A stretch of DNA of 63,531 nt, counting the filler. It is 4 parts of 4 records of this genome, joined end to end, with 100 filler letters (N's around TTAATTAATTAA, not from the genome) between each part and the next. Parts side by side here need not be neighbours in the genome. Positions count along the whole stretch, not along the records: positions 15,259 to 45,183 come from DRR723986_830; 3 more parts are not named here. One strand, written 5' to 3'. Under the pieces are notes generated by a model, which ran no database searches, was not told the origin of the DNA, and saw only the letters and a list, made by a program, of their open reading frames with translations. A program made the translations under genes and the position numbers. This document shows, in pieces, positions 15,159-58,399 of this stretch; within the stretch, counting starts at the first letter, position 1; each line of letters opens with the position of its first letter.

Positions 15159-15258
15159 NNNNNNNNNNNNNNNNNNNNNNNNNNNNNNNNNNNNNNNNNN
15201 NNTTAATTAATTAANNNNNNNNNNNNNNNNNNNNNNNNNNNNNNNNNNNNNNNNNNNN
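15159..15258. other. Artificial contig spacer
   Basis: N-run, TTAATTAATTAA (stops in all six frames), N-run; 100 nt. Confidence 0.98.
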
Positions 15259-15445: not shown

Positions 15446-15510
15446 TCGTCCAGGCCGAACTTTCCGGAACGAAAATTCGATTTTCTATTACCACGGGATT
15501 TCCCTATCAT
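15446..15510 (+). promoter_or_regulatory. LysR/NhaR-type operator (TCG-N7-CGA-N18-TCGA) with -10 box TATCAT upstream of purK
   Basis: TCGTCCAGGCCGA...GAAAATTCGA at 15446-15480 and TATCAT at 15505-15510; same geometry as 19641-19704. Confidence 0.6.
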
Positions 15511-15539
15511 ATGGAACTCGCAGTTTCAGGGGTACCGCG

Positions 15540-16769
15540 GTGGTACAAACGACAGACAGGCAAGCGTCCCTACGGGAGCCAGCACAGCGCCTCGGCATCA
15601 TCGGCGGCGGCCAGCTGGGCATGCTGCTGTGCCGGGCCGCCCGCACGCTGGGCCTGCACACCGTGGTCCTCACGCCGGACGACACGGCACCGGCGGTACA
15701 TGAAGCCGACACAGCCCTGATCGCCGCCTACGACGACCCCGAAACCCTCGCCGAATTTATCAACCAGTGCGACGTCATCACCTTCGAATTCGAAGCGGTC
15801 CCCGATACCACCCTGGAGCAACTGGCTGCAGCGGTGCAGCGCCAGGATATTCAGGTACATCCGGAGATTGATACCCTTCGCCTGCTCAAGGACAAGGGCA
15901 CCCAGAAGTGCTGGCTGGAAGAGCAGGGCCTACCCACCCTGCCCTTCAAACTGCTGGATCCGGATACCACAGTCGAAAGCCTGTTAAGCGGCGACCTGCA
16001 ACTGCCACTGGTGCAAAAGACCCGCAGCGGTGGCTACGACGGCAAGGGCGTCCAGCTACTGCCCTCGCAGGAGTCACTCGCCAATCTGTGGCCGGTAGCC
16101 AGCCTGGTGGAACCGCTGCTCGCCGATTGCATCGAGGTTGGCGTGGTCATCGCCAGCAATGGCAGCGGTACCTTGCGCGCCTACCCGCCGGTCTCCATGG
16201 AGTTCGACTGGGAATTTAACTCGGTGCTGACTGTAACCAGCCCGGCGACCGTTGACCCTGATATCCAGACTCGCTGTGCGGACGTCGCACACAATGCCAT
16301 TGCCGCCCTGGGCTCAGCCGGTGTATTCGCGGTGGAACTGTTCGTCACCCCGAAGAACGAGGTCTACATCAACGAGATTTCACCAAGGGTCCACAATTCC
16401 GGACACCTGACCATTGAGGCCTTCAAGCACGACCAGTTCGAACAGCATGTGCGCGCAGTGGCCGGTTTGCCGCTGGCAGCCATCGTGCCCCGGGCGCCGG
16501 CCGCAGTGATGCTTAACCTGCTCTACCGCGACAGCATGGCGCCGGCGATGGCGCCCAGACCCTACTGCGCGGAACTGGATGACCGGGCCCGCACCTGCCT
16601 GCACTGGTACGGCAAGCGTGAGGCGGTCCGCGGACGCAAGATGGGTCATATCACGGCCCTGGGAATTTCTACGGCGGTAGCCGCAGAGCGCGCTGAAGCC
16701 GGCCTGCAGCGGCTGGAATCCGGCGACCTGGGCGACCTGCCGGAACTCAACCGGGCGCTGGCGTCATGA
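15540..16769 (+). CDS. purK: N5-carboxyaminoimidazole ribonucleotide synthase (ATP-grasp, HCO3- dependent)
   Basis: LGIIGGGQLGML, DVITFEFEAV, KTRSGGYDGKG, GVFAVELF, INEISPRVHNSGH, QFEQHVRA and WYGK...GRKMGHIT; GTG start at 15540. Confidence 0.93.
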   Translation: MVQTTDRQASLREPAQRLGIIGGGQLGMLLCRAARTLGLHTVVLTPDDTAPAVHEADTALIAAYDDPETLAEFINQCDVITFEFEAVPDTTLEQLAAAVQRQDIQVHPEIDTLRLLKDKGTQKCWLEEQGLPTLPFKLLDPDTTVESLLSGDLQLPLVQKTRSGGYDGKGVQLLPSQESLANLWPVASLVEPLLADCIEVGVVIASNGSGTLRAYPPVSMEFDWEFNSVLTVTSPATVDPDIQTRCADVAHNAIAALGSAGVFAVELFVTPKNEVYINEISPRVHNSGHLTIEAFKHDQFEQHVRAVAGLPLAAIVPRAPAAVMLNLLYRDSMAPAMAPRPYCAELDDRARTCLHWYGKREAVRGRKMGHITALGISTAVAAERAEAGLQRLESGDLGDLPELNRALAS

Positions 16770-17257
16770 GTGCACAAGTCGGCATCATCATGGGCAGCGA
16801 CTCCGACTTGCCGGTCATGCAAGCGGCGGCGGATATCCTGACCGAGCTCGAGGTGGCCTGGGAACTGACCATAGTGAGTGCCCACAGGACCCCCGACCTG
16901 CTCTACGAGTACGCCGGCGGTGCTGAGGCTCGCGGCCTGCGCGTCATTATTGCCGGCGCTGGCGGTGCCGCGCACCTGCCCGGGATGGCCGCCGCACTGA
17001 CCGTACTGCCGGTGATCGGCGTCCCGGTCAGCGCCACCAAAATGGCCGGGGAAGACGCGCTGTTATCCATCGTGCAGATGCCTGCCGGCGTGCCGGTGGC
17101 AACCGTGGCCATCGACAACGCCACCAATGCCGGTATCCTCGCGGCACAGATGCTGGCAACTGGCGATGACGCCCTGCGCGGCCGACTGGCGACCTACAAG
17201 CTGAGCCTGAAAGACAAGGTGCTGGCCAAGGCCGCCGCACTGGCGCGAACCGACTGA
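16766..17257 (+). CDS. purE: N5-CAIR mutase
   Basis: [31 protein letters not shown] and [20 protein letters not shown] overlap with purK. Confidence 0.96.
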
Positions 17258-17264
17258 CGCACGG

Positions 17265-18263
17265 ATGTTCCTCGAAAATCTCAGCTCGCCGCCGCTACTG
17301 TTCTTCTTCCTTGGTGCGGCGGCGGTTCTGGCACGCTCCGACCTGGACATTCCAGGGCAAGTCGCCAAGTTTCTCTCCCTGTACCTGCTGTTCGCCATCG
17401 GCTTCAAAGGCGGCGTTGCGCTGGCTGAGTCGGACCTCACCAGTACCGTCTGGCTAACCCTGCTGGCGGCGATGGTGATGTCGGCGGCGATACCCTTGTA
17501 CTGCTTCTTCCTGCTGCGGCGGCGCTTTTCCAATGCCGATGCCGCGGCCACTGCCGCCACCTACGGCTCGGTAAGCGCGGTAACCTTCATTACCGCCACC
17601 AGTTACCTCACCACCCAGGGCGTCGACTGGAACGGCTACATGGTCGCGGCCATGGCACTGATGGAATCTCCCGCCATCATCGTCGGCATCCTGCTTTACA
17701 CACGCTATCGGGAGGGTGACGGGGGAAAGTCCGCACGCATCAACTGGTCGGAACTGCTGCGGGAATCCTGCCTCAACGGGTCGGTGTTCCTGATAATCGG
17801 CAGCATGCTCATCGGCTGGTTTACCGGACCCAAGGGCATGGAACAGATAGCGCCGGTCATCAAGGACCTGTTCCTCGGCGCGCTGTGCCTGTTCCTGCTC
17901 GACATGGGGATTGTTGCCGCGCGGCGCCTTGGGGACCTGCGCCGATCCAGTTCGGAGCAAGGCGACAAAGCTTCGCCACTGCCGTACATGGTCGGCTTTG
18001 CTCTTGTCTTCCCTGCACTCAACGCCGCCCTCGCGCTGGCGATCGGGCAACTGCTGGGCCTGGGTGAGGGCGACCTCGTGCTGTTCACGGTATTGGGGGC
18101 CAGCGCCTCCTACATTGCGGTACCGGCGGCCATGCGACTGGCGCTACCAGAGGCCAATCCCAGCACCTACCTGCCCATGTCGCTGGCGATCACCTTCCCC
18201 TTCAACCTGCTGGTGGGGATTCCGGTCTATCATCAACTGGCCAGATGGCTACTGGCTACCTGA
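17265..18263 (+). CDS. sbtA: Sodium-dependent bicarbonate transporter, SbtA family (DUF897)
   Basis: LSLYLLFAIGFKGG, TYGSVSAVTF, MALMESPAII, LFLLDMG, SASYIAVPAAMR and LAITFPFNL; about 10 TM; starts 7 nt after purE. Confidence 0.9.
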   Translation: MFLENLSSPPLLFFFLGAAAVLARSDLDIPGQVAKFLSLYLLFAIGFKGGVALAESDLTSTVWLTLLAAMVMSAAIPLYCFFLLRRRFSNADAAATAATYGSVSAVTFITATSYLTTQGVDWNGYMVAAMALMESPAIIVGILLYTRYREGDGGKSARINWSELLRESCLNGSVFLIIGSMLIGWFTGPKGMEQIAPVIKDLFLGALCLFLLDMGIVAARRLGDLRRSSSEQGDKASPLPYMVGFALVFPALNAALALAIGQLLGLGEGDLVLFTVLGASASYIAVPAAMRLALPEANPSTYLPMSLAITFPFNLLVGIPVYHQLARWLLAT

Positions 18264-18281
18264 GGCACAGGCCTAATAACA

Positions 18282-18578
18282 ATGAGACACTGTAAGCGTA
18301 TCGAAATCGTGATTGAGGAACCCATGGCGCCCCGCCTGATGGAAATCCTGAGGGAGGTTGGTGTTCCGGGATATACCGCAATTTACGATGCCAGCGGAGA
18401 CGGCGACCGCGGGATCCGCCGTGCCGACGAACTGGCCGGCGACTCCAGCAATGCCCTGTTCATCATCGCCTGCGAGGACGATGACCTGGTAATGCGCATC
18501 GCCGAGGCCGTGCGACCCCTGCTGAGCCGCTCCGGCGGACTGTGCCTGGTCAGTGACGCGATGTCACTGATCCACTGA
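18282..18578 (+). CDS. sbtB: PII-like regulator of the SbtB type
   Basis: KRIEIVIE, GVPGYT, SGDGDRG.R and GLCLVSD; directly downstream of sbtA. Confidence 0.85.
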   Translation: MRHCKRIEIVIEEPMAPRLMEILREVGVPGYTAIYDASGDGDRGIRRADELAGDSSNALFIIACEDDDLVMRIAEAVRPLLSRSGGLCLVSDAMSLIH

Positions 18579-18703
18579 CCACGCGCCACCCGGACGGCGG
18601 CTCTGACCCAAGACCACTTCCCAGAACAGTAACTCCAACGGTCCCAAACGAGCATCGCGCAGACCGCCTGCACCCCTTCATCCGTGCATTGATAACCGCC
18701 CGG

Positions 18704-19612
18704 CTACGAGGCCTGGTCAGCCAGCTGCTGGCGGGTCCGCTCGATGATCTCGACGACCGCCGCATGCTTCAGCCGCCGCTCGGGCGATATGGCCACGTAG
18801 TCCTCCCGCAGCTCCGGGATATGGCCGATTGAACGGGCGTGATACATGCGTTCAATCTCCGGGGTAATCGCCGCTGGCGCGGGGAACACCCCGGCCCCTG
18901 CCTGGCCGAAGGCTTTCAGCAGGGCGCTGTCGTCAAACTCGGCGATGATCCGCGGCTGCACGTCGACCCGCTCGAACCAGTCATCGAGCTCCCTGCGCAA
19001 CTGGGTGCCGGGGGTAGGCAGCAGCATCGGTGCCCCGTCCAGGGACTGGGGAAACGATCGGCGATAGCGCGCGGCGTCACCTTCTGCCGAGAAGAAGCTC
19101 ACTGCGCTGCCTCCCATCCGGTGGTTGTAGGCTTTCACATTCATGCCCGCGGGGATGGGCCGATCCGAAATCAGCAGGTCGAGGCGGTGAACCGCAAGGT
19201 CCGCCAGCAGGCTTTCGAGCGAGGCCTCGCTGCACACTACCTTCACCGATTCGGCGGCCGTCAGGGCGGGTTCGAGAATGCGGTAGGCGATCAGCTTGGC
19301 GATGGAATTGACGATGCCCACATTCAGCACCGCGTGCGACCGTCCCTGGTGGCCGCGAACTACCCGGCTAAGTTCAGCACCGAGATGGAAGATGTCGTCC
19401 GCATAATGCTTGACCAGCCGCCCCGCGTCGGTCAGCACCAGGCCACGCCCGGCACGTTGGAACAGGGCTTCGCCAACCGCCTCGTCCAGCAGTTTCAACT
19501 GCCCGCTGATAGTCTGCGGGGTGATGTGCAGCACCTCGGAGGCCCGGGCGATACTGCCCTCATTGGCAACGGTCCAGAAGTAATGCAGATGGTTGTAATT
19601 CAGATGGCGCAT
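18704..19612 (-). CDS. nhaR: LysR-family activator, NhaR subfamily
   Basis: LNYNHLHYFWTVANEGSIARAS..LHITPQTISGQL, LADLAVHRLDL, FPQSLDGAPMLLP, AEFDDSALLKAFGQAG and YVAISPERRLKH. Confidence 0.85.
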   Translation of the reverse strand: MRHLNYNHLHYFWTVANEGSIARASEVLHITPQTISGQLKLLDEAVGEALFQRAGRGLVLTDAGRLVKHYADDIFHLGAELSRVVRGHQGRSHAVLNVGIVNSIAKLIAYRILEPALTAAESVKVVCSEASLESLLADLAVHRLDLLISDRPIPAGMNVKAYNHRMGGSAVSFFSAEGDAARYRRSFPQSLDGAPMLLPTPGTQLRRELDDWFERVDVQPRIIAEFDDSALLKAFGQAGAGVFPAPAAITPEIERMYHARSIGHIPELREDYVAISPERRLKHAAVVEIIERTRQQLADQAS

Positions 19613-19640
19613 GGAGCCTCCGTAATAAGCCGCTGTTACT

Positions 19641-19704
19641 TCGAGATATACGATGATAGGCGGAGAAAAGATCGACTGGACCTTATTATAGCCCGAGCTA
19701 TGCT
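19641..19704 (+). promoter_or_regulatory. LysR/NhaR-type operator (TCG-N7-CGA-N18-TCGA) with -10 box TATGCT in the nhaR/yccA divergent region
   Basis: TCGAGATATACGA (T-N11-A)...GAAAAGATCGA at 19641-19675 and TATGCT at 19699-19704. Confidence 0.65.
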
Positions 19705-19739
19705 AGCGCCGACCAGTACACCTCATGGAGGCATCCGCA

Positions 19740-20444
19740 ATGCACCTCGACAAACCACGCGCCGTGGCGACCACGGCAGATTTCCGCAGCGCTGATGCAA
19801 CAGCACTTGGCCGCGACGCCGGTGCCCAGCAGGTTTTGCGCAACACCTACCGCCTGCTGGCGATGACCCTGGCGTTCAGCGCCCTGATTGCGGGCATGAG
19901 CGCCGCGTTGAAGCTGCCCCACCCCGGCCTGCTGCTGACCCTGGGGGGCTATTTCGGCCTGTTGTTCCTGACCGCAAAATTGCGCAACAGCGCCTGGGGA
20001 TTGCTCAGCGTCTTCGCCCTGACCGGCTTCATGGGTTACACCCTGGGACCGCTGATTGCCGCCTACCTGGCCATGCCCGGCGGCTCGAACATCGTCGCCA
20101 CCGCAATGGGTACCACGGCCATCGTCTTCACTGGACTGTCCTGGTTTGCCAACAGCGGACTGGCACCGGACGTACGGCGCTACGGTAACTTCCTGATGAT
20201 CGGCATCCTGACCGCCTTCTGCCTGGGGCTCGCGGCCTACTTCTTCGCCATGCCGGCCCTGTCGCTCGCGGTCTCGGGACTGTTCGTGCTGCTGATGTCC
20301 GGGCTGATCCTGTACCAGACCCAGGACATCATCAACGGCGGCGAGCGTAACTACATCATGGCGACCGTGACCCTGTTCGTCGCCATCTACAACCTGTTTG
20401 CCAGCTTGCTGCAGCTGCTCGGCTTCTTCGGCGGCGAGGAGTAA
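19740..20444 (+). CDS. yccA: Bax inhibitor-1/YccA family membrane protein
   Basis: VLRNTYRLLAMTL, FALTGFMGYTLGP and IINGGERNYIMATVTLFVAIYNLF; GGAGG RBS. Confidence 0.9.
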   Translation: MHLDKPRAVATTADFRSADATALGRDAGAQQVLRNTYRLLAMTLAFSALIAGMSAALKLPHPGLLLTLGGYFGLLFLTAKLRNSAWGLLSVFALTGFMGYTLGPLIAAYLAMPGGSNIVATAMGTTAIVFTGLSWFANSGLAPDVRRYGNFLMIGILTAFCLGLAAYFFAMPALSLAVSGLFVLLMSGLILYQTQDIINGGERNYIMATVTLFVAIYNLFASLLQLLGFFGGEE

Positions 20445-20517
20445 CCGGCCTCGCCTGACGCGACGTTGCGCTAGTGCTAAAGTTATCAAGACCAAACCAC
20501 ACCCAAAGGAGAACTGA

Positions 20518-21231
20518 ATGTTGACCCTGCCCCGATCCATCCTGGCCGCAGCGGCATTTGCCGCCGCCGTCGCCCTGCCCATGACTGCCTCGGCAGACAA
20601 CCATGCCGGCGTGCAAACCCTGGCATCACAGTCAGAGCTCACGCCCGCCGCCGCCCTGGGCCTGCTCAAGGCCGGCAACGAGCGCTTCCTCAGCGGCACC
20701 ATGGCGGAACGCGACCTCAAAGCCCAGGTCGCGGCAACGGCGGGCGGCCAGTACCCGCACTCCATCGTATTGAGCTGTATCGACTCGCGGGTACCGCCGG
20801 AGCTGGTGTTCGACCAGGGCATCGGCGACATCTTTTCCCCCCGAGTAGCCGGTAACTTCGTCGATTCGGAATTGCTGGGCAGCATGGAGTTTGCCGCCGC
20901 CGTGGCCGGCTCCAAAGCCCTGGTGGTCCTTGGCCACACCGAGTGCGGCGCGGTTAAAGGTGCCTGCGACGACGTCAAGCTCGGCAACCTGACCAGCACC
21001 CTGAGCTATATCAAGCCCGCCGTGGACGCGGTGCAGGGCTTTGATGGCGAACGCAACTCCGGCAACAAGGCCTTCGTCGACGAGGTAACCCACGAAAACG
21101 TGCGTCAGACCGTCGACAACATCCTCAGCCAGAGCCCGGTACTCGCCGAACTGGTTAGCCGCGGCATGTTGGTCGTAGTTGGCGCTGTCTATGACGTCAG
21201 CACCGGCAAAGTAACCTTTATGGAAAGCTAA
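20518..21231 (+). CDS. Beta-class carbonic anhydrase with Sec-type signal peptide
   Basis: LKAGNERF, GQYP, Zn ligands C(IDSRV) and H(TEC)GAV, FDQGIGD, RVAGN and GAVYDVSTGKV; N-terminal MLTLPRSILAAAAFAAAVALPMTASA; AAGGAG RBS. Confidence 0.92.
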   Translation: MLTLPRSILAAAAFAAAVALPMTASADNHAGVQTLASQSELTPAAALGLLKAGNERFLSGTMAERDLKAQVAATAGGQYPHSIVLSCIDSRVPPELVFDQGIGDIFSPRVAGNFVDSELLGSMEFAAAVAGSKALVVLGHTECGAVKGACDDVKLGNLTSTLSYIKPAVDAVQGFDGERNSGNKAFVDEVTHENVRQTVDNILSQSPVLAELVSRGMLVVVGAVYDVSTGKVTFMES

Positions 21232-21243
21232 GACCGGTGCACC

Positions 21244-21273
21244 CCGGGGGCGGCGCAACGCCCCCGGACTTTT
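21244..21273 (+). terminator. Rho-independent terminator after the carbonic anhydrase gene
   Basis: CCGGGGGCG-gcgcaa-CGCCCCCGG stem-loop followed by ACTTTT. Confidence 0.7.
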
Positions 21274-25977: not shown

Positions 25978-27294
25978 CTACATAAAGGCAAACTTGGCGA
26001 GGAACACCAGCGCCAGGAACCAGGCTCCCGGAGTGATATCACGCCTGCGGCCCACACACAGCTTGATCGCCACGTAGCTGATAAAACCCACCGCAATGCC
26101 GTTAGCGATGGAAAAGGACAGCGGAATCATGACGATGGTGATCAGTGCCGGCACCACCTCGCTCATATCGGACCATTCCAATCCCTGCACGCCGGTCATC
26201 ATCAGCATGGCCACATAGACCAGGGCCCCGGCGGTCGCGTAGGCGGGCACCATCCCCGCCAGCGGGGCGAAGAAAATTGCCAGCAGGAACAGGATGCCAA
26301 CGGTCACCGCCGTCAGGCCCGTGCGCCCACCAGCAGCCACCCCCGCCGCACTCTCCACGTAACTGGTGACCGGGGCACAACCCAGGAACGCGCCGAGCAC
26401 GCTGGATGTACTGTCAGCCTTGAGAGCGCGATCCATGTTCTGGATGTTGCCGTCGCTGTCGATCAGGTTGGCCCGGCTGGCCACGCCCAGCAGGGTGCCG
26501 GCCGTATCGAACAGGTTGACGAACAGGAAGGCGATGATCACGCTGGTCATGGCAACGTCCAGGGCACCCATGATGTCCAGCTTGAACAGGGTCGGGGCCA
26601 GGCTCGGCGGCGCAGAAACCAGGCCGTTAAATGACACCAGGCCCTGAAACAGCGCTATCAGGGTCACCGAGAGAATTCCGATAATAATGGCGCCGTGAAT
26701 CTGGCGAATCGACAGGATGGCGATCAGCAGGAAGCCGATGCAGGCCAGCAAGGGAGCCGGCTGGGTCAGATCGCCGAGGGTGAGGAAGGTGGCATCGCTG
26801 GCGACGATAATGCCGCCGCTCTTGAGCCCGATAAAGCCGACAAACAGCCCGACGCCCGCACCCATGGCGATGCGCAGGTCCAGTGGAATACTGTCCAGCA
26901 TCCAGCGCCGTATCCGGGTCACGCTCATGATGACGAACAAGACCCCTGCCAGGAACACGGCACCCAGGGCCACCTCCCAGCTATAGCCCATGTCGGCGAC
27001 CACGGTATAGGTGAAGAAGGCGTTGAGCCCCATACCCGGTGCCAGGCCCACCGGCCAGTTGGCGTACAGGCCCATCAGCAGGCAGGCGAGTGCCGAGGCC
27101 AGGCAGGTGGCAACGAAGCTGGCCTGCTGGTCCATCCCCGCGGCCGCCATCATCTGCGGATTCACGAAAATGATATAGGCCATGGTGACAAAGGTGGTCG
27201 CGCCGGCAACCAGTTCGGTGCGCACATCGGTGCCGTGCTCGGCCAGCCTGAAAAACCGCCCGAGGGCGCCCTGCTCCAGAGATTGCTCTGCCAT
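25978..27294 (-). CDS. NCS2/AzgA-family purine (adenine/guanine/hypoxanthine) permease
   Basis: TELVAGATTFVTMAYIIFVNP, LAPGMGLNAFF, FDTAGTL, TSYVESAAGV..GGRTGL and FSIANGI. Confidence 0.92.
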   Translation of the reverse strand: MAEQSLEQGALGRFFRLAEHGTDVRTELVAGATTFVTMAYIIFVNPQMMAAAGMDQQASFVATCLASALACLLMGLYANWPVGLAPGMGLNAFFTYTVVADMGYSWEVALGAVFLAGVLFVIMSVTRIRRWMLDSIPLDLRIAMGAGVGLFVGFIGLKSGGIIVASDATFLTLGDLTQPAPLLACIGFLLIAILSIRQIHGAIIIGILSVTLIALFQGLVSFNGLVSAPPSLAPTLFKLDIMGALDVAMTSVIIAFLFVNLFDTAGTLLGVASRANLIDSDGNIQNMDRALKADSTSSVLGAFLGCAPVTSYVESAAGVAAGGRTGLTAVTVGILFLLAIFFAPLAGMVPAYATAGALVYVAMLMMTGVQGLEWSDMSEVVPALITIVMIPLSFSIANGIAVGFISYVAIKLCVGRRRDITPGAWFLALVFLAKFAFM

Positions 27295-27432
27295 GCTTCA
27301 GAAACCGCCCGTCGGTGAGTTCGCTGCGAAGCAGGCAGTTTACGCAATCGCTCCCCACCCGACTACATGCCGGGCCTTTTAAGCCGCGAGGCCTGTGCTA
27401 ATCTTGGGTTTTCCCCGGACCGATCACCGCTC

Positions 27433-28005
27433 ATGCACAAACACTACATCAGCGCCCAGCAGTTGCTGGAGGACTCCTTCCGCCTGGCCTGGCAGGTCTT
27501 CGAGAGCGGATTCCGACCCAACTACATCATCGGGGTCTGGCGCGGCGGCGCGCCGGTAGGCATCGCGGTGCAGGAACTGCTCGACGTGCTGGGGGTAGAA
27601 TCTGACCACATCGCGATCCGCACGTCCTCCTACACCGGTATCGGGGAGCGCAACCGGCATGTGCTGGTGCACGGCCTGAATTACGTGATCCGCCGCCTCG
27701 AGTCGGAGGACTCCCTGCTGATCGTGGACGATGTGCACGATACCGGCTTATCGATCAACCAGACCATCGAGGACCTCCAGGCGGCGTGTAAAAAGAACAC
27801 GCCGGAGATCCGCATCGCCACGCCCTACTACAAGCCCGGCAACAACCGGACCCAGCGGGTACCCGATTACTACATCCATGAAACTGACGACTGGCTGGTT
27901 TTTCCCCACGAGCTGGACGGCCTGACCACCGAGGAGTTGCGCGCCAACAAGCCCGAGTTGGCGAGCTTCCTGTCCAGGATGGAACCGCTGCTGAAGAAAC
28001 CTTAG
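27433..28005 (+). CDS. Type I phosphoribosyltransferase (hypoxanthine/xanthine-guanine PRT-like)
   Basis: IIGVWRGG, PRPP-binding LLIVDDVHDTGLS and PDYYIHETDDWLVFPHE. Confidence 0.87.
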   Translation: MHKHYISAQQLLEDSFRLAWQVFESGFRPNYIIGVWRGGAPVGIAVQELLDVLGVESDHIAIRTSSYTGIGERNRHVLVHGLNYVIRRLESEDSLLIVDDVHDTGLSINQTIEDLQAACKKNTPEIRIATPYYKPGNNRTQRVPDYYIHETDDWLVFPHELDGLTTEELRANKPELASFLSRMEPLLKKP

Positions 28006-28580
28006 TCGGGATCGGCGCTGCGCGTGTAGGCGCGGATTATGGCCGCGTGCCCGGGGAAGCGCGCAATGAGAGCCTCCCGCTCACCGAGGCTCATATCCTC
28101 GTACTCGAAGCCCGGGGACACCGCCTCGCTGATCAGGCCGTACTGCCCCCCCGGCAGGTGCGACGCCTTCCAGATACCGCCGCGCACCACCAGCTGCAAC
28201 TGCTGTCCCGCCGCCAGGTCTGGTCCCAGCACCGCGGTTTCCAGGCGCCCGTCCGGGTGGATCAGGTAGTAATGCACCGGGCTGCCGAGATGGTAGTAGT
28301 GAATGATGTCCGACTTGTTCAGGTGCCAGTGCCCGATCGGTGCCGCTTCGGTCAGCAGGTAGAAGATTGAGGTGAGGGTGTAGCGCTCCCCCTCCCCCTG
28401 GTCGATCCGCGGCCGGTGATCGGCCTGGAAGGTGCGGCGGAAGTAGCCGCCTTCAACATGGGCCTCCAGGCCCAGCTCGCGAATCACGGTCTCCAGGTCG
28501 GGTTGTTGCGGCACGTTTGTCTCTCCCCAGCTGGGCCCGGTGGCCAGCAGCAGGCCGAATAATAGTGATCGCAGGCTCAC
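28002..28580 (-). CDS. DUF985/Cupin_5 family protein with putative signal peptide
   Basis: LGLEAHVEGGYFRRT, TSIFYLL, WH...SDIIHYYH.G, QLVV.GG.WKA and SEAVSPGFEYED; hydrophobic N-terminus SLLFGLLLATGPSWG. Confidence 0.85.
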   Translation of the reverse strand: MSLRSLLFGLLLATGPSWGETNVPQQPDLETVIRELGLEAHVEGGYFRRTFQADHRPRIDQGEGERYTLTSIFYLLTEAAPIGHWHLNKSDIIHYYHLGSPVHYYLIHPDGRLETAVLGPDLAAGQQLQLVVRGGIWKASHLPGGQYGLISEAVSPGFEYEDMSLGEREALIARFPGHAAIIRAYTRSADPD

Positions 28581-29989
28581 GGCGCTGCCTGCTGGCCCGC
28601 CAGTGCGGCCCGGATCTGGTCACTGCGGGCCTGAACTGCCTTGCGCAGCGCTGCCTCGTCGATCGTGCTGACCTCGCGGTTTTCCATCAACACCCGGCCG
28701 GCAACGACGGTCGTCGTCACATTAGCGCTGTCCAGCACATAGACCAGGTGCGACATCACATCGTACAGCGGCAGCTGGTGGGTCTGGTCCAGCTCCAGCT
28801 GGATCAGATCCGCCTGCATGCCCGGTTGCAGCTGGCCTACGGCATCACCCAGGCGCACCGCCTGCGCGCCGAGGCGGGTTGCCATGGCCAGCGCGGCCGG
28901 AGCCGGCAAGGTAGTTGGGTCCCCACTGTTGACCTTGTGCAGCAGGGCGGCCATGCGGATCTCTTCCCACATGTCCAGATCGTTGTTGGAGGCGGCACCA
29001 TCGGTGCCGAGGCCAACGTTCACTCCGGCGGCCAGCATCGCCGGCACCGGCGACACCCCGGCGCCCAGCTTCATATTCGAGGTGGGATTGTGAACCGCGC
29101 CCACTCCGGCTTCGGCCGTGAGCGCGATGTCATTGGGATCAAGCTGCACCATGTGCGCCGCAATCAGCCGCTGCCGGTACAGGCCAAGGTCGCTGGCGTG
29201 GCGCACCGGGGTCTTGCCGAAATTCCCGGCAATATAGGCGGTCTCTGCCGGCGCCTCGGCCAGGTGCATGGAGATAATTGCGTCCAACTGCTCGGCTTTT
29301 TCAACGGTGGCCCGCAGATTCTCCGGAGCCACGGTGTACGGGGCGTGGGGGGCAAAGGCCGGGGTTATACGCGGGTGCTTGCCCTGCCAGCGGCTGACGA
29401 AGTCTATCGCTGCGGCAAAGGAGTCATCCCAGCCGCTGAAGCCCGGACTGGGATAATCGATATGCGGCGCCGCCACTACCGCCCGCAGGCCGCAGCGATC
29501 TACGACACCGGCTATCTCGTCCGGGTAGAAGTACATATCGACAAACGTGGTGGTACCACCGCGAATCATTTCCCAGCAGGCAAGCTCGGTACCCACACGG
29601 ACAAACTCAGGGGTAACAAAGCGCCCCTCCATGGGGAACACGTACTGGTTGAGCCAGGTCATCAGGTCCAGGTCGTCAACCATGCCCCGAAACAGGGTCA
29701 TCGCCGTGTGGGTATGGCCATTCACCAGACCGGGCATCAGTACCCGGTTCGCTCCCGGGATTGCGCGGGCGGCCATATGGGCGGCGTCGATCTCGGCGCG
29801 TGGGCCGACGGCGATGATTTTATCGCCACTTACTACCACCGCCCCGTCCTCGATCACCGGGTTACCCTCGGTCATCGGCAGCACATAATCGCCGTACAGG
29901 ATCAGGTCCGCAGCCACGCCCGTCTGGACGGGGATAACAGTGACAAGAAGCAGGGCAAGAAGCCCCGCGGGAAGCTGTATTTTCAACAC
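28577..29989 (-). CDS. Amidohydrolase, MTA/SAH (nucleoside) deaminase-like, with putative signal peptide
   Basis: LMPGLVNGHTH, GTTTFVDMY, APHAPYTV, MHLAE, AAHMV, HNPTSNMKLG and LGTDGAASNNDLDM; GTG at 29989 gives a signal-like N-terminus. Confidence 0.88.
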   Translation of the reverse strand: MLKIQLPAGLLALLLVTVIPVQTGVAADLILYGDYVLPMTEGNPVIEDGAVVVSGDKIIAVGPRAEIDAAHMAARAIPGANRVLMPGLVNGHTHTAMTLFRGMVDDLDLMTWLNQYVFPMEGRFVTPEFVRVGTELACWEMIRGGTTTFVDMYFYPDEIAGVVDRCGLRAVVAAPHIDYPSPGFSGWDDSFAAAIDFVSRWQGKHPRITPAFAPHAPYTVAPENLRATVEKAEQLDAIISMHLAEAPAETAYIAGNFGKTPVRHASDLGLYRQRLIAAHMVQLDPNDIALTAEAGVGAVHNPTSNMKLGAGVSPVPAMLAAGVNVGLGTDGAASNNDLDMWEEIRMAALLHKVNSGDPTTLPAPAALAMATRLGAQAVRLGDAVGQLQPGMQADLIQLELDQTHQLPLYDVMSHLVYVLDSANVTTTVVAGRVLMENREVSTIDEAALRKAVQARSDQIRAALAGQQAAP

Positions 29990-30203
29990 GATTGACGCCT
30001 GAACTGGGAACCCGAAGGCAGGGAGCATAGCACCCACTGCGATGGGTCGTGAATTCTGGTACTTTTGCCGCCTGCGGCTGCGAAGTTGCCGCAGAAAGTG
30101 TAAATTTTCACGCTTATCAGAACATCCGCCACCGGCTCATCAGAAAGCCGGGCCGGCATGCAAGGGAACTACCCACATTTCAGCGTTCTCAGGAGAGAGT
30201 CTC

Positions 30204-32363
30204 ATGAAAAGGTCCACCGCACCCCGCCTGGCCCTGGCCAGCGCCGTTGCCGCAGCCGTCGGCTTTGCCACCCCGGCCATGGCACAGCTTGAAGAAGTGA
30301 TTGTCACCGCCACCAAGCGCGAGCAGAGCCTGCTCGACGTCCCGATCTCGGTCGCCACTCTGTCCGGTGAACGGTTCACCTCGATCTTCGAGGGCGGGGC
30401 GGACATCCGCGGCCTGTCGGCTCGGGTGCCGGGCCTGTACGTGGAATCCTCGAACGGCCGGGTGGCGCCACGCTTCTACATCCGCGGCCTGGGTAACACC
30501 GACTTTGACCTCGCCGCCTCCCAGCCGGTGTCCATCATCATGGACGAGGTGGTAAAGGAGAACGTGGTCCTGAAGAGCTTCCCGCTGTTCGACATCCAGC
30601 GCGTGGAAGTCCTGCGCGGCCCCCAGGGCTCACTGTTCGGCCGCAACACCACCGCCGGCATCGTGAAGTTCGACTCCAACAAGCCTACCTATGAGCCGGA
30701 AGGCCATGCCAAGGTGGATATCGGCGACCTCGACACCATCAATTTTGAAGGCGCCATCAGCGGCGGCCTCGGTGAGACCGTTGCCGGACGCCTGGCCGCG
30801 CTGTACCAGAGCCGGGGCGACTACATCGACAACGACTTTACCGGCGAAAGCGAAGCGCTGGGCGGGTTCATCGAAAAAGCGGTCAAGGGCTTCCTGCTGT
30901 GGGAACCCACCGATCGCCTGAGCGTACTGGCCGGTGCACACTATCGTGACCTGGAAGGTACTGCGGCCGTGTTCCGCGCCAATATCTTCACCAAGGGTTC
31001 CAACAAGCTCAACCAGAACTACGACCGCGAGACGGTGTTCTTCGACGAGGGTGAAAACAACCCGCAGGAGTACGAGAACTCCGGCTTCAACGTCAAAGTG
31101 GAGTATGACCTCGGCGGCATGACCCTGACCTCGATCACCGCTTTCGATGAGGCAGAGGGCCTCAGCCGCGGTGATATCGATGGTGGTTTCGGTGCCGTGT
31201 TCCTGCCCGAGTCCGGGCCGGGCTTTATTCCCTTCCCGTCCCAGTCGCAGGATGACGCCGACGTGGAGCAGTTCACCCAGGAGCTGCGCCTGGCCAGCGA
31301 ATACGGTGACAGCTTCAACTGGCAGGTGGGTGCCTTCTTCTTTGACTCGACCCTCGACGTGACCACCAACCCGTTCTTCATCCCGGCGACCACGGTTGAG
31401 CATGAGAACCAGACCTGGGCGGTATTCGGCCAGGGCGACTACGCGATCAACGATGCCTGGACCCTGACCGCCGGCCTGCGCTGGACCGATGACGAGAAGG
31501 ATTTCTCCGCACCGGGTTTCAAGGAGTCCGTATCCGATGACCAGCTCAGCGGCGACGTCACCCTGTCCTACACCATGAGCGACGCCTCGCTGCTGTGGGG
31601 CAAGATCGGCACCGGTTTCCGCGCGCCGACCATCCAGGGCCGCGACGTGGCCTTCGGCGCAGCGCCGTCGATCGCCGATTCCGAAACCATCACCTCCTTT
31701 GAAGTGGGCTACAAGGGCCAGTTCGCTAACGACCGGCTGCGCCTGAATGCCGCCCTGTTCTACTACGAGGTGGAGGACATCCAGTTCACCGCGGTAGGCG
31801 GCAGCGGCAACTTCATCCAGCTGACCAACGCCGACACCGGCATCGGCCAGGGCTTTGAACTGGACGTCGAATGGCTGATAGTCGACAACCTGCAGGTCAC
31901 CTTCGGCGCGGCCTATGCCGACACCGAGATCGACGACAGCAGGCTGCGCGTCGGTATCTGCGGTTTCGACAACTGCACCGTGACCAACCCCATCGACGCC
32001 GATGGCCGCGCCCTGGTGGACGGCAACCCGTTCCCCAATGCGCCGGAGTGGACCTACAACTTCACTGCCTCCTACAGCATCCCTGTCGGCAGGGAGTCGG
32101 AACTGTTCGCATTTACCGACTGGGCCTACCAGGGTGACACCAACCTGTTCCTCTACGAGTCCAAGGAGTTCACCACCGACGGCCAGTACGAGGGCGGTGT
32201 GCGCGCGGGCTGGCGCCTGCGGGACGGTAGTTTCGAAGTTGCACTGTTCGGTCGTAACATCACCGATGAGGAAAACGTGCAGGGTGCCATCGACTTCAAC
32301 AACCTGACCGGCTTCACCAACGAGCCGCGGGTCTGGGGTCTGTCGATCGCATCATCCTTCTGA
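30204..32363 (+). CDS. TonB-dependent receptor
   Basis: Signal peptide; TonB box LEEVIVTATKR; RVEVLRGPQGSLFGRNTTAG; C-terminal Phe; GGAGAG RBS. Confidence 0.93.
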   Translation: MKRSTAPRLALASAVAAAVGFATPAMAQLEEVIVTATKREQSLLDVPISVATLSGERFTSIFEGGADIRGLSARVPGLYVESSNGRVAPRFYIRGLGNTDFDLAASQPVSIIMDEVVKENVVLKSFPLFDIQRVEVLRGPQGSLFGRNTTAGIVKFDSNKPTYEPEGHAKVDIGDLDTINFEGAISGGLGETVAGRLAALYQSRGDYIDNDFTGESEALGGFIEKAVKGFLLWEPTDRLSVLAGAHYRDLEGTAAVFRANIFTKGSNKLNQNYDRETVFFDEGENNPQEYENSGFNVKVEYDLGGMTLTSITAFDEAEGLSRGDIDGGFGAVFLPESGPGFIPFPSQSQDDADVEQFTQELRLASEYGDSFNWQVGAFFFDSTLDVTTNPFFIPATTVEHENQTWAVFGQGDYAINDAWTLTAGLRWTDDEKDFSAPGFKESVSDDQLSGDVTLSYTMSDASLLWGKIGTGFRAPTIQGRDVAFGAAPSIADSETITSFEVGYKGQFANDRLRLNAALFYYEVEDIQFTAVGGSGNFIQLTNADTGIGQGFELDVEWLIVDNLQVTFGAAYADTEIDDSRLRVGICGFDNCTVTNPIDADGRALVDGNPFPNAPEWTYNFTASYSIPVGRESELFAFTDWAYQGDTNLFLYESKEFTTDGQYEGGVRAGWRLRDGSFEVALFGRNITDEENVQGAIDFNNLTGFTNEPRVWGLSIASSF

Positions 32364-32365
32364 TA

Positions 32366-32390
32366 GTGCACCTGCCCCCGGCAGGTGCAC
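32366..32390. repeat. Perfect 11-bp inverted repeat directly after the TonB receptor stop
   Basis: GTGCACCTGCC-ccc-GGCAGGTGCAC. Confidence 0.7.
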
Positions 32391-32431
32391 AGGTGGCGGC
32401 CTTCTTCTACACTGTGGAAGCGGCCGCCGGT

Positions 32432-32458
32432 AAACCCCGGCCCAGGCCGGGGTTTTTT
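32432..32458 (+). terminator. Rho-independent terminator between the TonB receptor and transporter genes
   Basis: AAACCCCGGC-ccag-GCCGGGGTTTTTT. Confidence 0.8.
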
Positions 32459-32498
32459 GTTATGAACGCCTGATAAAACAACAACAGAGGGCCAGTCC

Positions 32499-33500
32499 AT
32501 GTTTATCGTCGAATCCTACGGTGTCGCCGTAGCACTGTGTTTCCTGACCATGCTCTGCTGGGGCTCCTGGGCCAATACCCAGAAGCTCGCCACCCAGGAG
32601 TGGCGCTTCCAGCTGTTTTACTGGGACTATTCCATCGGCGTCCTGCTGCTGGCTCTTGCGCTGGCCTTCACCCTGGGCAGCAGCGGTGAACAGGGCCGGG
32701 CCTTCCTGCCTGATATTTCCCAGGCCAGCGTCGAATCCATCCAGATGGCCCTACTCGGCGGGGCCGTATTCAACCTCGCCAATATCCTGCTGGTGGTTGC
32801 TATCGATATCGCGGGCATGGCCGTGGCCTTTCCGGTCGGCATTGGCCTGGCCCTGGTAATCGGCGTCATCGCCAATTACGACCCGGTCCAGGTTAACAGC
32901 GCCATGCTGTTGTTTTTCGGGGTCGGACTGGTGGTCGTGGCCATCATCATCGACGCGCTGATTTACCGTCGGGTGCCCAGCGCCGGCGGCCAGGGCATTG
33001 GCAAGGGCCTGGCCATTTCGGTGATCGCCGGCATCGCCATGGGCTTCTTCTACCGCTTCGTTGCCCAATCCATGTCCTTCGACTTCGCCAACCCGGACCC
33101 GGGCCTGATGACCCCCTACTCCGCCGGCGTGGTATTTGGCGTCGGCCTGCTGCTGTCGAATGTGATTTTCCTGATCCCGCTGATGTACAAGCCGATCAGC
33201 GGCGAACCGGCAGCGCTGGGAGAGTACTTCAGCAAGGGCACCCCGCGCCTGCACCTGGTGGGCATCCTCGGCGGCGCGATCTGGGCGACAGGCTTCTGTT
33301 TCAATATCATCGCTGCCGGCAAGGCCGGCTACGCCGTGTCTTACGGTCTTGGCCAGGGCGCGACCATGGTCGCCGCCTTCTGGGGTGTGTTTATCTGGAA
33401 GGAATTCAAGGACACACCGGCCGGTACCGGGGCACTTATTGGCGCCATGTTTGCCTGCTTCTTCTTCGGCCTGGGCATGATCATTTACTCCAATCTGTAG
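32499..33500 (+). CDS. DMT-superfamily transporter (GRP/ureide-permease-like; likely ribose or purine derivative uptake)
   Basis: LCWGSWANTQKL, FQLFYWDY, AGMAVAFPVGIG and YGLGQGATMVAAFWGVFIWKEF; about 10 TM; upstream of rbsK. Confidence 0.8.
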   Translation: MFIVESYGVAVALCFLTMLCWGSWANTQKLATQEWRFQLFYWDYSIGVLLLALALAFTLGSSGEQGRAFLPDISQASVESIQMALLGGAVFNLANILLVVAIDIAGMAVAFPVGIGLALVIGVIANYDPVQVNSAMLLFFGVGLVVVAIIIDALIYRRVPSAGGQGIGKGLAISVIAGIAMGFFYRFVAQSMSFDFANPDPGLMTPYSAGVVFGVGLLLSNVIFLIPLMYKPISGEPAALGEYFSKGTPRLHLVGILGGAIWATGFCFNIIAAGKAGYAVSYGLGQGATMVAAFWGVFIWKEFKDTPAGTGALIGAMFACFFFGLGMIIYSNL

Positions 33501-33509
33501 GCGAGCCCC

Positions 33510-34442
33510 ATGAGCAAGGTCGTTGTCATCGGTTCTTCCAACACGGATATGATCATCCAGGTGCCGCACCTGCCCGGACCCGGGGAAACCGTGCTCGGCG
33601 GTGCGTTCACCACCGCCGCCGGCGGCAAGGGCGCCAACCAGGCGGTGGCAGCAGCCCGCGCCGGCGGCAAGGTCAGCTTCATCGGGGCAATGGGAGACGA
33701 TCACTTCGGCCGGCAAGCATTGGCGGGATTCGAAGCTGACGGTATCGATACCGGTCTGTGCCTGATCGATCCGGTCACGCCTTCCGGCGTGGCGCAGATC
33801 TTCGTGGCCGACGATGGCGAGAACTCGATCGGCGTGGCCCCGGGGGCCAACGCCTGTCTGGAAGCGGGCCATATCGACCGCGCCGCCGGCCTGTTCGGGC
33901 CGGGCACAGTTGTCCTGCTCCAGCTTGAAACCCCACTGGAGACCGTGGTTCACGCCGCGCAACTCGCGAGGTCGCGCGGCAGCACCGTTATTCTGAACCC
34001 GGCGCCCGCCGCCACCCTGCCTGACGAGATCTATGCCAACATCGACTACTTCACGCCCAACCTGAACGAGACTGAGCTGCTGACCGGTATGCAGCCGGCG
34101 GACGAGACTTCCGCCCAGATCGCCGCCGAAATCCTGCACAGTCGCGGGGTAAACAACGTGCTGATCACCCGGGGAGCAGAGGGCGTATACCTGTCCCGGC
34201 GTGCCGCCGACGGGTCGATCTCCGGCGGTATGTTCCCGGCATTCCGGGTCAAGGCGGTGGACACGACCGCCGCCGGCGACGTGTTCAACGGCTGCCTGGC
34301 GGTTGCCCTGGCCGAGCAACGGGACCTGGCGGACGCCATTACCTTCGCCCAGGCGGGAGCCGCACTGTCGGTACAGACCCTGGGCGCCCAGATCAGTGCA
34401 CCTACGCTGGACGCCATCCACAACCTTATTCAAACCTCCTGA
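33510..34442 (+). CDS. rbsK: Ribokinase
   Basis: VIGSSNTDM, PGPGETV, GGKGANQAVAAARAG, GENSIGV, LQLETP, LNPAPA and VDTTAAGDVFNG. Confidence 0.93.
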   Translation: MSKVVVIGSSNTDMIIQVPHLPGPGETVLGGAFTTAAGGKGANQAVAAARAGGKVSFIGAMGDDHFGRQALAGFEADGIDTGLCLIDPVTPSGVAQIFVADDGENSIGVAPGANACLEAGHIDRAAGLFGPGTVVLLQLETPLETVVHAAQLARSRGSTVILNPAPAATLPDEIYANIDYFTPNLNETELLTGMQPADETSAQIAAEILHSRGVNNVLITRGAEGVYLSRRAADGSISGGMFPAFRVKAVDTTAAGDVFNGCLAVALAEQRDLADAITFAQAGAALSVQTLGAQISAPTLDAIHNLIQTS

Positions 34443-34454
34443 CGAGTTGATTCC

Positions 34455-35513
34455 ATGACTTACCTGCGTACGCTTCCCCTGTTGTTCCTGCTCGCCCTGT
34501 TTGCCCTGACCACCCGGGCCGCGGAGCCCCTGCCAATCAAGGTAGTGGTGGTCACCATGTTTGAAACCGGGGCCGACACCGGCGACCAGGCCGGGGAATT
34601 CCAGCGTTGGAATGAACGCCAGGACCTCGCTACGGTGTATCCCGCGCCGCACATGCACCACGACATCCACGTCAATGAGAAGACCGGTGTGCTCGGCATT
34701 GTCACCGGCATGGGTACCGCCAATGCCGCGGCCAGCGTGATGGCCCTGGGCCTGGATCCGCGCTTCGACCTGAGCCGGGCATACTGGCTGGTGGCGGGAA
34801 TTTCCGGTTTTGATCCCGCGGATGCCTCGCTGGGCTCGGTTGCCTGGGCCGAGTGGCTGGTAGACGGTGACCTGGCCCACGAGATCGACGCCCGGGAAAT
34901 TCCAGAGGACTGGGATACGGGCTACTTCCCCCTGTTCAGCCAGGGGCCGGGCGACCCCGAGCGCCGCAGCTACAACCTGGGCGAGGTTTTCCAATTGAAT
35001 CCCGCCCTGGTTAACTGGGCCTATGAATTGACCCACGGCATGGACCTGCCCGACGACCCCAGCCTGGAGGCCACCCGCAAACTCTACGTGGACTACCCGA
35101 CCGCCCAGCGCAAACCTTTCGTGCTCAAGGGCGACCAGCTGGCGGCGATGACCTTCTGGCACGGCACGGTGCTCAATGACTGGGCCAACGCGTGGACCAA
35201 ATACTGGACCAACGGCCAGGGCGAGTTCGTCAGCTCCGCCATGGAAGACACCGGGACCTTCCAGTCGCTGAGTTACCTGCACGCCGGGGGAAAGGTGGAT
35301 AAAAACCGGGTGATGGTACTGCGCACCGCGTCGAACTTTACCCTGCCACCGCCCGGGAAGTCGGCAGCCGATTACCTGCGCGAGGAACAGCACGACAGTT
35401 ACGCCGGTCTCGACGCGGCCCTGGAAAATGCCTACCTGGTGGGCAGCCGGGTCGTTAAGGAGTTGCTGGACAACTGGGACCGCTACGCAAAAACACCGCC
35501 CGGCAGCCCCTGA
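34455..35513 (+). CDS. 'Purine nucleoside permease' (NUP) family protein; soluble, exported, nucleoside phosphorylase-like motifs
   Basis: Signal peptide; KVVVVTMFE.G, LGLDPRFDLS..YWLVAGISG.DP, DGDLAHEIDARE, FWHG, SAMEDTG and VMVLRTASNF. Confidence 0.85.
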   Translation: MTYLRTLPLLFLLALFALTTRAAEPLPIKVVVVTMFETGADTGDQAGEFQRWNERQDLATVYPAPHMHHDIHVNEKTGVLGIVTGMGTANAAASVMALGLDPRFDLSRAYWLVAGISGFDPADASLGSVAWAEWLVDGDLAHEIDAREIPEDWDTGYFPLFSQGPGDPERRSYNLGEVFQLNPALVNWAYELTHGMDLPDDPSLEATRKLYVDYPTAQRKPFVLKGDQLAAMTFWHGTVLNDWANAWTKYWTNGQGEFVSSAMEDTGTFQSLSYLHAGGKVDKNRVMVLRTASNFTLPPPGKSAADYLREEQHDSYAGLDAALENAYLVGSRVVKELLDNWDRYAKTPPGSP

Positions 35514-45183: not shown

Positions 45184-45283
45184 NNNNNNNNNNNNNNNNN
45201 NNNNNNNNNNNNNNNNNNNNNNNNNNNTTAATTAATTAANNNNNNNNNNNNNNNNNNNNNNNNNNNNNNNNNNNNNNNNNNNN
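45184..45283. other. Artificial contig spacer
   Basis: N-run, TTAATTAATTAA, N-run. Confidence 0.98.
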
Positions 45284-58299: not shown

Positions 58300-58399
58300 N
58301 NNNNNNNNNNNNNNNNNNNNNNNNNNNNNNNNNNNNNNNNNNNTTAATTAATTAANNNNNNNNNNNNNNNNNNNNNNNNNNNNNNNNNNNNNNNNNNNN
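58300..58399. other. Artificial contig spacer
   Basis: N-run, TTAATTAATTAA, N-run. Confidence 0.98.

Follow-up and report, generated by a model that had tools for sequence, protein, structure and literature searches.

A purK-purE-sbtA-sbtB gene string with a shared NhaR-type motif and a putative role in bicarbonate supply to purine synthesis in marine bacteria

Genes at the purK-purE-sbtA-sbtB locus

The 63.5 kb stretch of DNA analysed here (the window), which consists of four contigs joined by N-spacers, carries a string of four genes, purK-purE-sbtA-sbtB, in which a predicted bicarbonate permease of the SbtA family and its PII-like partner SbtB follow two enzymes of purine synthesis. The string lies near the start of a 29.9 kb contig (15259-45183, GC content 0.636) and is followed by a gene for an NhaR-type regulator of the LysR family, by yccA and by a gene for a carbonic anhydrase (CA). 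The features of this region are as follows.

15446-15480, plus strand: predicted NhaR-type operator upstream of purK, TCG-N7-CGAA-N17-TCGA
15540-16769, plus strand: purK, synthetase of N5-carboxyaminoimidazole ribonucleotide (N5-CAIR), which uses HCO3- and ATP; 409 aa, the GTG start being our call
16766-17257, plus strand: purE, class I N5-CAIR mutase; TIGR01162 208 bits (cut-off 149.6), GGAAHLPG motif
17265-18263, plus strand: sbtA, short, SbtA2-like permease of the SbtA family; 332 aa, PF05982 395 bits
18282-18578, plus strand: sbtB, PII-like protein; 98 aa, PF00543 (P-II family) 44 bits
18704-19612, minus strand: NhaR-subfamily LysR regulator; NF008284 253.7 bits (cut-off 219)
19641-19675, plus strand: predicted NhaR-type operator between nhaR and yccA, an exact match to the pattern
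19725-20444, plus strand: yccA, membrane protein of the Bax inhibitor-1 family (Bax1-I); PF01027 134.7 bits
20518-21231, plus strand: beta-CA of the PRK15219 type with a predicted Sec signal peptide; NF011765 259 bits (cut-off 221)
21244-21273, plus strand: possible terminator behind the CA gene, a GC-rich hairpin with a 9-bp stem (RNA.fold) followed by TTTT

The genes are closely packed. purK and purE overlap by 4 nt (ATGA), sbtA starts 7 nt past purE and sbtB 18 nt past sbtA, and yccA and the CA gene are oriented divergently from nhaR; in all of this, and in the gene identities, we agree with an earlier interpretation made from the letters alone (the sequence-only reading). Given the spacing, the four genes of the string probably form one operon. 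A possible -10 element, TATCAT (15505-15510), was seen by eye after the motif upstream of purK; a scan for sigma-70 promoters and terminators returned nothing beyond chance, and did not call the hairpin at 21244-21273, since it requires five T.

PurK scores slightly under two equivalog cut-offs (NF004679, 318.7 bits against 326; TIGR01161, 297.8 against 318.4), yet it has the Pfam PurK_C domain in addition to ATP-grasp and lies far below the PurT cut-offs. It also carries the motifs GGGQLG, GYDGKG, INEISPRVHNSGH and RKMGH, and by motif and profile we place the pair in the PurK/class I PurE pathway. In many related loci with the order purK-purE-sbtA-sbtB (order A) or purE-purK-sbtA-sbtB (order B), for example L075, L076, L078, L081, L068 and L070-L072, a short leader open reading frame (ORF), some 20 codons long and with a ribosome site of its own, was seen by eye, and left uncounted; its stop overlaps the start of purK or purE, whichever comes first, and its sequence is not conserved. 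To the eye, the leader stretch seems to have been fused to PurK in the window's subclade.

The window SbtA matches positions 1-307 of the 308 of PF05982 at 395 bits, against a cut-off of 27, which places it in the SbtA family (TC 2.A.83). It also matches PDB 7cye (E 1.9e-21) and shows nine hydrophobic peaks, the crossover helix in transmembrane segment 4 (TM4) being missed. Its short length and its distance from SbtA1 fit SbtA2, whose identity to SbtA1 is about 25%, no named SbtA2 sequence being part of this comparison, and its motifs presumably resemble those of SbtA2 as well; the transporter thus looks SbtA2-like. Compared with the bicarbonate site of Synechocystis SbtA (PMC8352866), Ser114 and Ser324 are kept, while Tyr140 is replaced by Met and Ser327 by Ala, so that the residue set of SbtA1, the Na+/HCO3- symporter of the Synechocystis type, is incomplete. 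SbtA2 is reported to transport HCO3- in E. coli with stimulation by Cl- or sulfate and not by Na+ (PMC13187645). Because the window protein lacks two of the four SbtA1 residues and looks SbtA2-like, and Na+ did not drive SbtA2 in E. coli, the Na+-coupled import proposed by the sequence-only reading is doubtful, and we find no support for it.

The 98-aa product of the next gene has the PII fold, the position behind sbtA and, by alignment, the T-loop residues Arg43 and Arg46 of SbtB, whose role is treated in bioRxiv 10.1101/2023.08.10.552651; its profile matches Synechocystis SbtB (E 1e-6). The C-terminal CGPxGC loop of the redox-type (R-loop) SbtB is absent from it. A Thermus sbtB (TTHA0516) may also lie near pur genes, a hint for which no supporting paper was found.

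YccA scores 195.6 against NF007765, under the cut-off of 353, and may in fact start at a later ATG (19740). The CA has both zinc motifs of a Cys2-His beta-CA, CxDxR (C87/D89/R91) and HxxC (H140/C143), and a hydrophobic N-terminus that ends in ASA-D and was judged a signal peptide by eye and by hydropathy; we predict that it is exported to the periplasm.

Recurrence of the linkage and the resident purE

The closest locus found is that of a Halioglobus metagenome-assembled genome (MAG), which has the same gene order and an SbtA 80% identical to that of the window, with no CA behind yccA. The GTDB family of this MAG (306 genomes, Halieaceae by title), its order and its class served as comparison sets. 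Genomes of the family are mutually related and many are incomplete MAGs; the counts given below are descriptive, and the events behind them not independent. Of the 306 family genomes, 92 have an SbtA above the Pfam cut-off (107 matches, of which 101 loci from 89 genomes were examined). sbtA lies beside purE or purK in 77 of these 92 (74 of the 89 genomes with examined loci, and three more by coordinates) and is unlinked in 15, so the synteny reaches far beyond one genome, in line with the sequence-only reading. Order A, that of the window, was found in 36 genomes, order B in 15 and a third, sbtA-purE-purK (order C), in 23. The order is not an assembly artefact in the window, because single marine-metagenome contigs span 16134-17263 and 17256-20041 (the best run is possibly related to the source sample); a single-protein scan of genome contigs gave one locus only.

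Each of the three orders forms one clade in the SbtA tree, where they are parted by unlinked and carboxysome-associated SbtAs, and one clade in the PurK tree. In the PurE tree orders B and C are single clades, and order A is intermixed with purK-purE loci that have no sbtA. Outside the family, the order sample has SbtA in 60 of 201 genomes; with two family members excluded, sbtA is linked (within 1.5 kb) in 24 of 58, in further gene orders. A joint tree requires 14 changes of linked state; as it was made with FastTree and no approximately unbiased test, the number of independent origins is a lower-confidence estimate. In the class-wide sample (54 of 401 genomes over the SbtA cut-off, 59 loci) four loci lie near purE or purK, and 24 with carboxysome or RuBisCO genes. 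SbtA homologues were also found on 20 plasmids, and neither of the two that were opened has purK-purE nearby. Within the family, PurK (called at TIGR01161 E < 1e-60, matches of 1e-46 to 1e-52 being read as PurT, as directly seen in G001) is present in 92 of 92 genomes with SbtA, and SbtA in 0 of 64 without PurK.

One explanation of this pattern is a horizontally co-transferred cassette, in which SbtA carries some other anion or is dispensable and only purK-purE is of benefit. The module types show a dispersed distribution on the core-gene tree, two of the four SbtA1 substrate residues differ in the window SbtA, and the SbtA-like protein of the non-autotroph Labrenzia alexandrii, the sole tested SbtA from a non-autotroph that our literature search found, gave no HCO3- uptake in E. 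coli according to PMC4275256. However, the motifs SASYIAVP and YGSVS, the TM9 motif among them, also occur in the SbtAs of carboxysome and RuBisCO clusters (24 loci), and the pairing is seen repeatedly, with SbtA, PurE and PurK each of separate lineages, in at least five gene orders, for which one hitch-hiking event is insufficient. We regard this explanation as improbable.

The host could also be autotrophic or mixotrophic and use sbtAB to fix carbon, with an incidental purK-purE neighbourhood. A tblastn search of the window with RbcL, RbcS, BMC, CsoSCA and CcmL found none of them, as the sequence-only reading had stated, and a contig of only 29.9 kb says little about its host. The view of that reading that the hosts lack RuBisCO holds for nearly all relatives: the sink of a CO2-concentrating mechanism (RuBisCO and carboxysome) is missing from the window, and only 1 of the 77 linked family genomes (G068) has a strong RuBisCO match; all 38 genomes that share the gene order of the window are among the 76 without one. 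Weak matches in 8 of the 77 (E 1e-19 to 1e-27) are likely RuBisCO-like proteins. The match in G068 (C248:1057-1980, locus L287) is form I-like and lies on a small contig, which could reflect autotrophy or binning contamination. This match, that in G563, a loosely linked genome of the class, and the class-wide share of SbtA loci with carboxysome or RuBisCO genes speak for an autotrophic host, which the 76 linked genomes make very improbable.

The linkage takes on another aspect when the other purE genes of the family are considered, a relation that the earlier note had missed. purE was found in 288 of the 306 genomes, and more than one copy in 45 of the 74 linked ones, compared with none of the 15 unlinked and 8 of the 196 SbtA-less ones. 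Where two copies are present, the second stands alone in a core locus, dprA-purE-tsaC-hemF (10 of 10 genomes checked). This lone purE has no PurK beside it. Four PurK-less genomes were checked as well; all four have it as their sole purE, and their copies form one clade with the second copies. Its motif, AAGMAAHLAGA, is class I-like. We had considered that it encodes a class II AIR (aminoimidazole ribonucleotide) carboxylase, for which there is no support, as the protein keeps an AAHL motif and matches class I-type structures. A first reading from G001, of the linked purK-purE as a mere housekeeping copy, was dropped after the family-wide survey of purE.

Nine single-copy genomes have a recovered and intact core locus (that of a tenth was not recovered), and in eight of them purE is gone from it, while one (G122) retains an internally deleted remnant. 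In this remnant (L399:1220-1441) an in-frame deletion joins the N-terminal five residues to the C-terminal helix, which resembles a loss in progress. When placed on a HemF+TsaC tree (23 genomes), the losses do not group together, showing seven changes, the same number as in shuffles; this fits an ancestral lone purE that was repeatedly lost after the arrival of purK-purE. The module therefore appears to be an add-on to the resident PurK-less purE in some genomes and its replacement in others, the replacement having apparently occurred several times. A class I-like PurE that lacks PurK is considered to depend on high CO2 (PMC3261824, PMC10880623), and purK has been associated with aerobes (PMC12846827).

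A promoter motif shared by purK and yccA

The LysR protein of the window passes the NCBIfam cut-off of the NhaR subfamily, and genes of this type lie within about 6 kb in 32 of 36 order-A, 13 of 15 order-B and 6 of 23 order-C loci, and in 0 of 27 unlinked ones. In order C the LysR gene has CbbR as its best model, below the cut-off, in 15 of 23 loci. A pattern, TCG-N7-CGAW-N17-TCGA, has exactly two matches in the window against 0.15 expected, upstream of purK and between nhaR and yccA, a count that is partly circular, since both promoter sets had been inspected by eye in choosing the seed. A matrix was also built from nhaR-side sites, 13 in number and all taken from other genomes; with it, the same two sites score highest in the contig (19641, 36.2 bits; 15446, 17.4 bits; third best 3.6). 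It scores above every one of 30 block shuffles in 24 of the 33 purK leaders of order A, in 10 of the 15 purE leaders of order B and in none of the 18 leaders of order C. In the 4 kb around nhaA of E. coli, its best match (19.7 bits) lies 107 nt before the nhaA start. The first half of the motif resembles the consensus TCgtaAaAAac given for E. coli NhaR in PMC6307784. We suspect that the motif is an NhaR-like operator upstream of both purK and yccA, and likely the switch site of the neighbouring regulator of the salt or pH type.

The CA is tied to the string in a different way from that proposed by the sequence-only reading, which had joined both NhaR and the CA to the module. The shared motif before purK and before yccA-CA bears out the tie of both. 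A fixed syntenic place of the CA was rejected, as it is adjacent in only 1 of 36 order-A relatives (yccA in 15 of 36). Homologues of the window CA were found in 15 of 46 genomes searched. The seven closest (63-77%) all have a motif match upstream, at 8.8-44 bits, one of these being a training site of the matrix and five lying away from nhaR; the more distant homologues have a match in 2 of 8. Because the motif is shared and adjacency is so rare, the CA likely belongs to the system by co-regulation rather than by synteny.

Matrix matches of at least 12 bits number 66 in the 101 loci, 56 of them upstream of a gene and 10 without an assigned gene. The genes behind them are purK (18), yccA (15), purE (6) and an unlinked sbtA of the SbtA1 type (3), and a few each of DUF533, LysR, HPF-like, CA, nhaA and other genes. 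These last targets raise the main competing explanation, a general alkali and salt regulon in which NhaR drives genes of pH homeostasis (nhaA, yccA, CA, HPF-like), SbtA feeds all carboxylases or buffers the cytoplasmic pH, and purK-purE merely share the trigger. Motifs upstream of nhaA, yccA, HPF-like and DUF533 genes fit such a regulon, several loci have nhaA or Mrp genes in their vicinity, nhaR-side purK-purE loci without sbtA carry the motif too (L282, L284), and sbtA is away from purK in 15 family genomes. Order C, however, keeps sbtA-purE-purK together with a CbbR-like regulator and without the motif, so that the link outlasts the regulator, and no further carboxylase is a recurrent neighbour among 136 neighbour proteins scanned. 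We consider a general regulon unlikely, if less so than the other alternatives.

Several smaller genes accompany these loci. Seven order-A loci, among them L083 (2332-2658), encode between sbtB and nhaR a conserved protein of some 108 aa that has no Pfam match; an HPF-like gene often adjoins it. In order C, which is without sbtB, an ORF of about 60-90 aa, again with no Pfam match, often lies between the CbbR-like gene and sbtA (L103:5783-6001; L111:7011-7235). A second, SbtA1-like clade of sbtA paralogues (motif SSSDISGP, about 30% identity) is found away from purK in L120-L129, with examples in G059, G060, G061, G064, G070, G073 and G001; an NhaR-type motif lies 58-79 nt upstream of three of them, and yccA is about 5 kb off in several.

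On the contig of the string, 5 kb downstream (25978-35513), is a cluster for nucleobase and nucleoside scavenging, with a xanthine/uracil permease, a phosphoribosyltransferase, a DUF985 cupin, an amidohydrolase-family deaminase, a TonB receptor, a ureide-type permease, a ribokinase and a purine nucleoside permease; it was not observed to be conserved next to the module. The four joined contigs differ in GC content (0.685, 0.636, 0.589 and 0.602) and need not come from one organism. Their joints are artificial spacers:

15159-15258, no strand: N44-TTAATTAATTAA-N44
45184-45283 and 58300-58399: further spacers of the form N44-TTAATTAATTAA-N44

A possible bicarbonate line to purine synthesis

Taken together, these observations suggest that the string is an acquired module in which a permease and its PII-like partner are joined to purK-purE, and that it probably serves, likely under an NhaR-type switch, as a bicarbonate line that sustains the carboxylation of AIR when CO2 is scarce in a non-autotrophic marine bacterium. 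In this scenario, high pH or Na+, or low CO2, would activate the NhaR-type protein, which would bind both operators and turn on purK-purE-sbtA-sbtB and yccA-CA. The periplasmic CA would convert CO2, including respired CO2 that leaks from the cell, to HCO3-, which SbtA, as expected from its family, would import, with SbtB gating the import by the state of the adenine nucleotides. PurK forms N5-CAIR with the use of HCO3- and ATP, and PurE rearranges N5-CAIR to CAIR. The module would thereby release purine synthesis from the need of a PurK-less purE for plentiful CO2, and the imported bicarbonate would serve further carboxylases too.

Several points weigh against such a line. PurK can do without the importer, given that 132 family genomes have PurK without SbtA and 15 have sbtA apart from purK. 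Of the 92 SbtA genomes, 77 have a beta-CA (133 of 214 others), in most cases of a different and apparently cytoplasmic type; this enzyme would itself supply HCO3- and would bleed a concentrated pool. The motif before purK is missing in three of the window's closest relatives (G001, G286 and G290), and a false match of 23.6 bits, far from any target, occurs in 1 of 15 control loci. The fit of the motif targets to a general regulon, its partly circular tests, the two changed bicarbonate residues, the inactive Labrenzia protein and the relatedness of the family genomes count on the same side. SbtA as a replacement of the cytoplasmic CA was rejected on the beta-CA count; from the same count, a top-up of the bicarbonate supply is more likely than a strong concentrating system.

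Among the closest known counterparts is the cyanobacterial sbtA-sbtB pair (Synechocystis slr1512/slr1513; PDB 7cye, 7cyf and 7egk; SbtA2/SbtB2 of marine alpha-cyanobacteria, PMC13187645), which likewise has a permease followed by a PII-like SbtB with R43 and R46, a LysR gene nearby, the crossover motifs of TM4 and TM9, and Ser114 and Ser324. It differs in that here RuBisCO and carboxysome genes are lacking, the pair is joined to purK-purE and the regulator is NhaR-type in orders A and B; in addition, the window SbtA is short and SbtA2-like, unlike Synechocystis SbtA1, with Asp325 changed to Tyr besides the changes at Tyr140 and Ser327, and the window SbtB lacks the CGPxGC loop. The SbtA(B) of carboxysome loci in chemolithoautotrophic Gammaproteobacteria (PMC10880623) is of the same short type, with the same motifs and often a LysR neighbour, but its neighbours are carboxysome and RuBisCO genes and a CbbR-like regulator, whereas here the neighbour is PurK. 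As in the E. coli NhaR regulon (nhaA, osmC, pgaA; PMC6307784), there is an NhaR LysR protein, a consensus-like operator and, in one relative, the motif at nhaA; the predicted targets here, purK-purE-sbtA-sbtB, the CA and the second sbtA, are not named in the accessible part of that source. Shewanella NhaR is listed under osmotic stress in PMC3223726, whose supplementary regulon tables could bear on the novelty of these targets.

The resident purE of the family, with its AAGMAAHLAGA motif, resembles the PurK-less, class I-like PurE of methanogens and high-CO2 settings (PMC3261824, PMC10880623), but in this aerobic marine family a second purE, coupled to PurK and accompanied by an importer, has been added, and several lineages delete the resident gene. 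Firmicutes tend to have either a DAB/MpsAB-type pump or a cytoplasmic CA (PMC10880623). Like those pumps, the module would import inorganic carbon for biosynthetic carboxylations in a non-autotroph; unlike them, it uses an unrelated transporter family and does not replace the CA. DAB/MpsAB-type pumps are known from heterotrophs such as Staphylococcus aureus.

As the sequence-only reading had supposed, an sbtAB-purKE operon seems not to have been described: our literature search, with curated databases and subscription journals outside its scope, found no sbtA-purK-purE operon and no NhaR control of inorganic-carbon genes. The accessible text of PMC10880623 mentions sbtA, purK and bicarbonate and draws no link between them. 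The module is real and conserved, an apparently undescribed variant of putative SbtAB-based carbon uptake in non-autotrophs, all of its parts coming from known families.

SbtA and SbtB have been studied almost only in the CO2-concentrating mechanisms of autotrophs, and the conserved link to PurK, assembled repeatedly in hosts without RuBisCO, points to a concrete job for the many sbtA genes of heterotrophs, with the sharp prediction that purines cure a low-CO2 or high-pH defect. The predicted operator would open a new set of targets to NhaR-subfamily proteins, and the window SbtA is a fresh candidate for heterologous screens of bicarbonate uptake. A natural comparison exists within the family, in which 64 genomes have only the PurK-less purE, 45 have both routes and several have lost the old gene; it could test CO2 dependence as a limit on the growth and culturing of marine heterotrophs.

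More tentatively, and with somewhat more doubt than belief, we suggest that this is RuBisCO-free carbon uptake mainly for purines, with an NhaR-type protein, a type not known other than as a regulator responding to Na+ and pH, as master switch of importer, exported CA and PurK, and that a mobile purK-purE-sbtAB repeatedly replaced an ancestral CO2-hungry purE. If such replacement is true, the genome of a lineage could reveal its need for added CO2. In alkaline, CO2-poor seawater, the module likely sustains purine synthesis.

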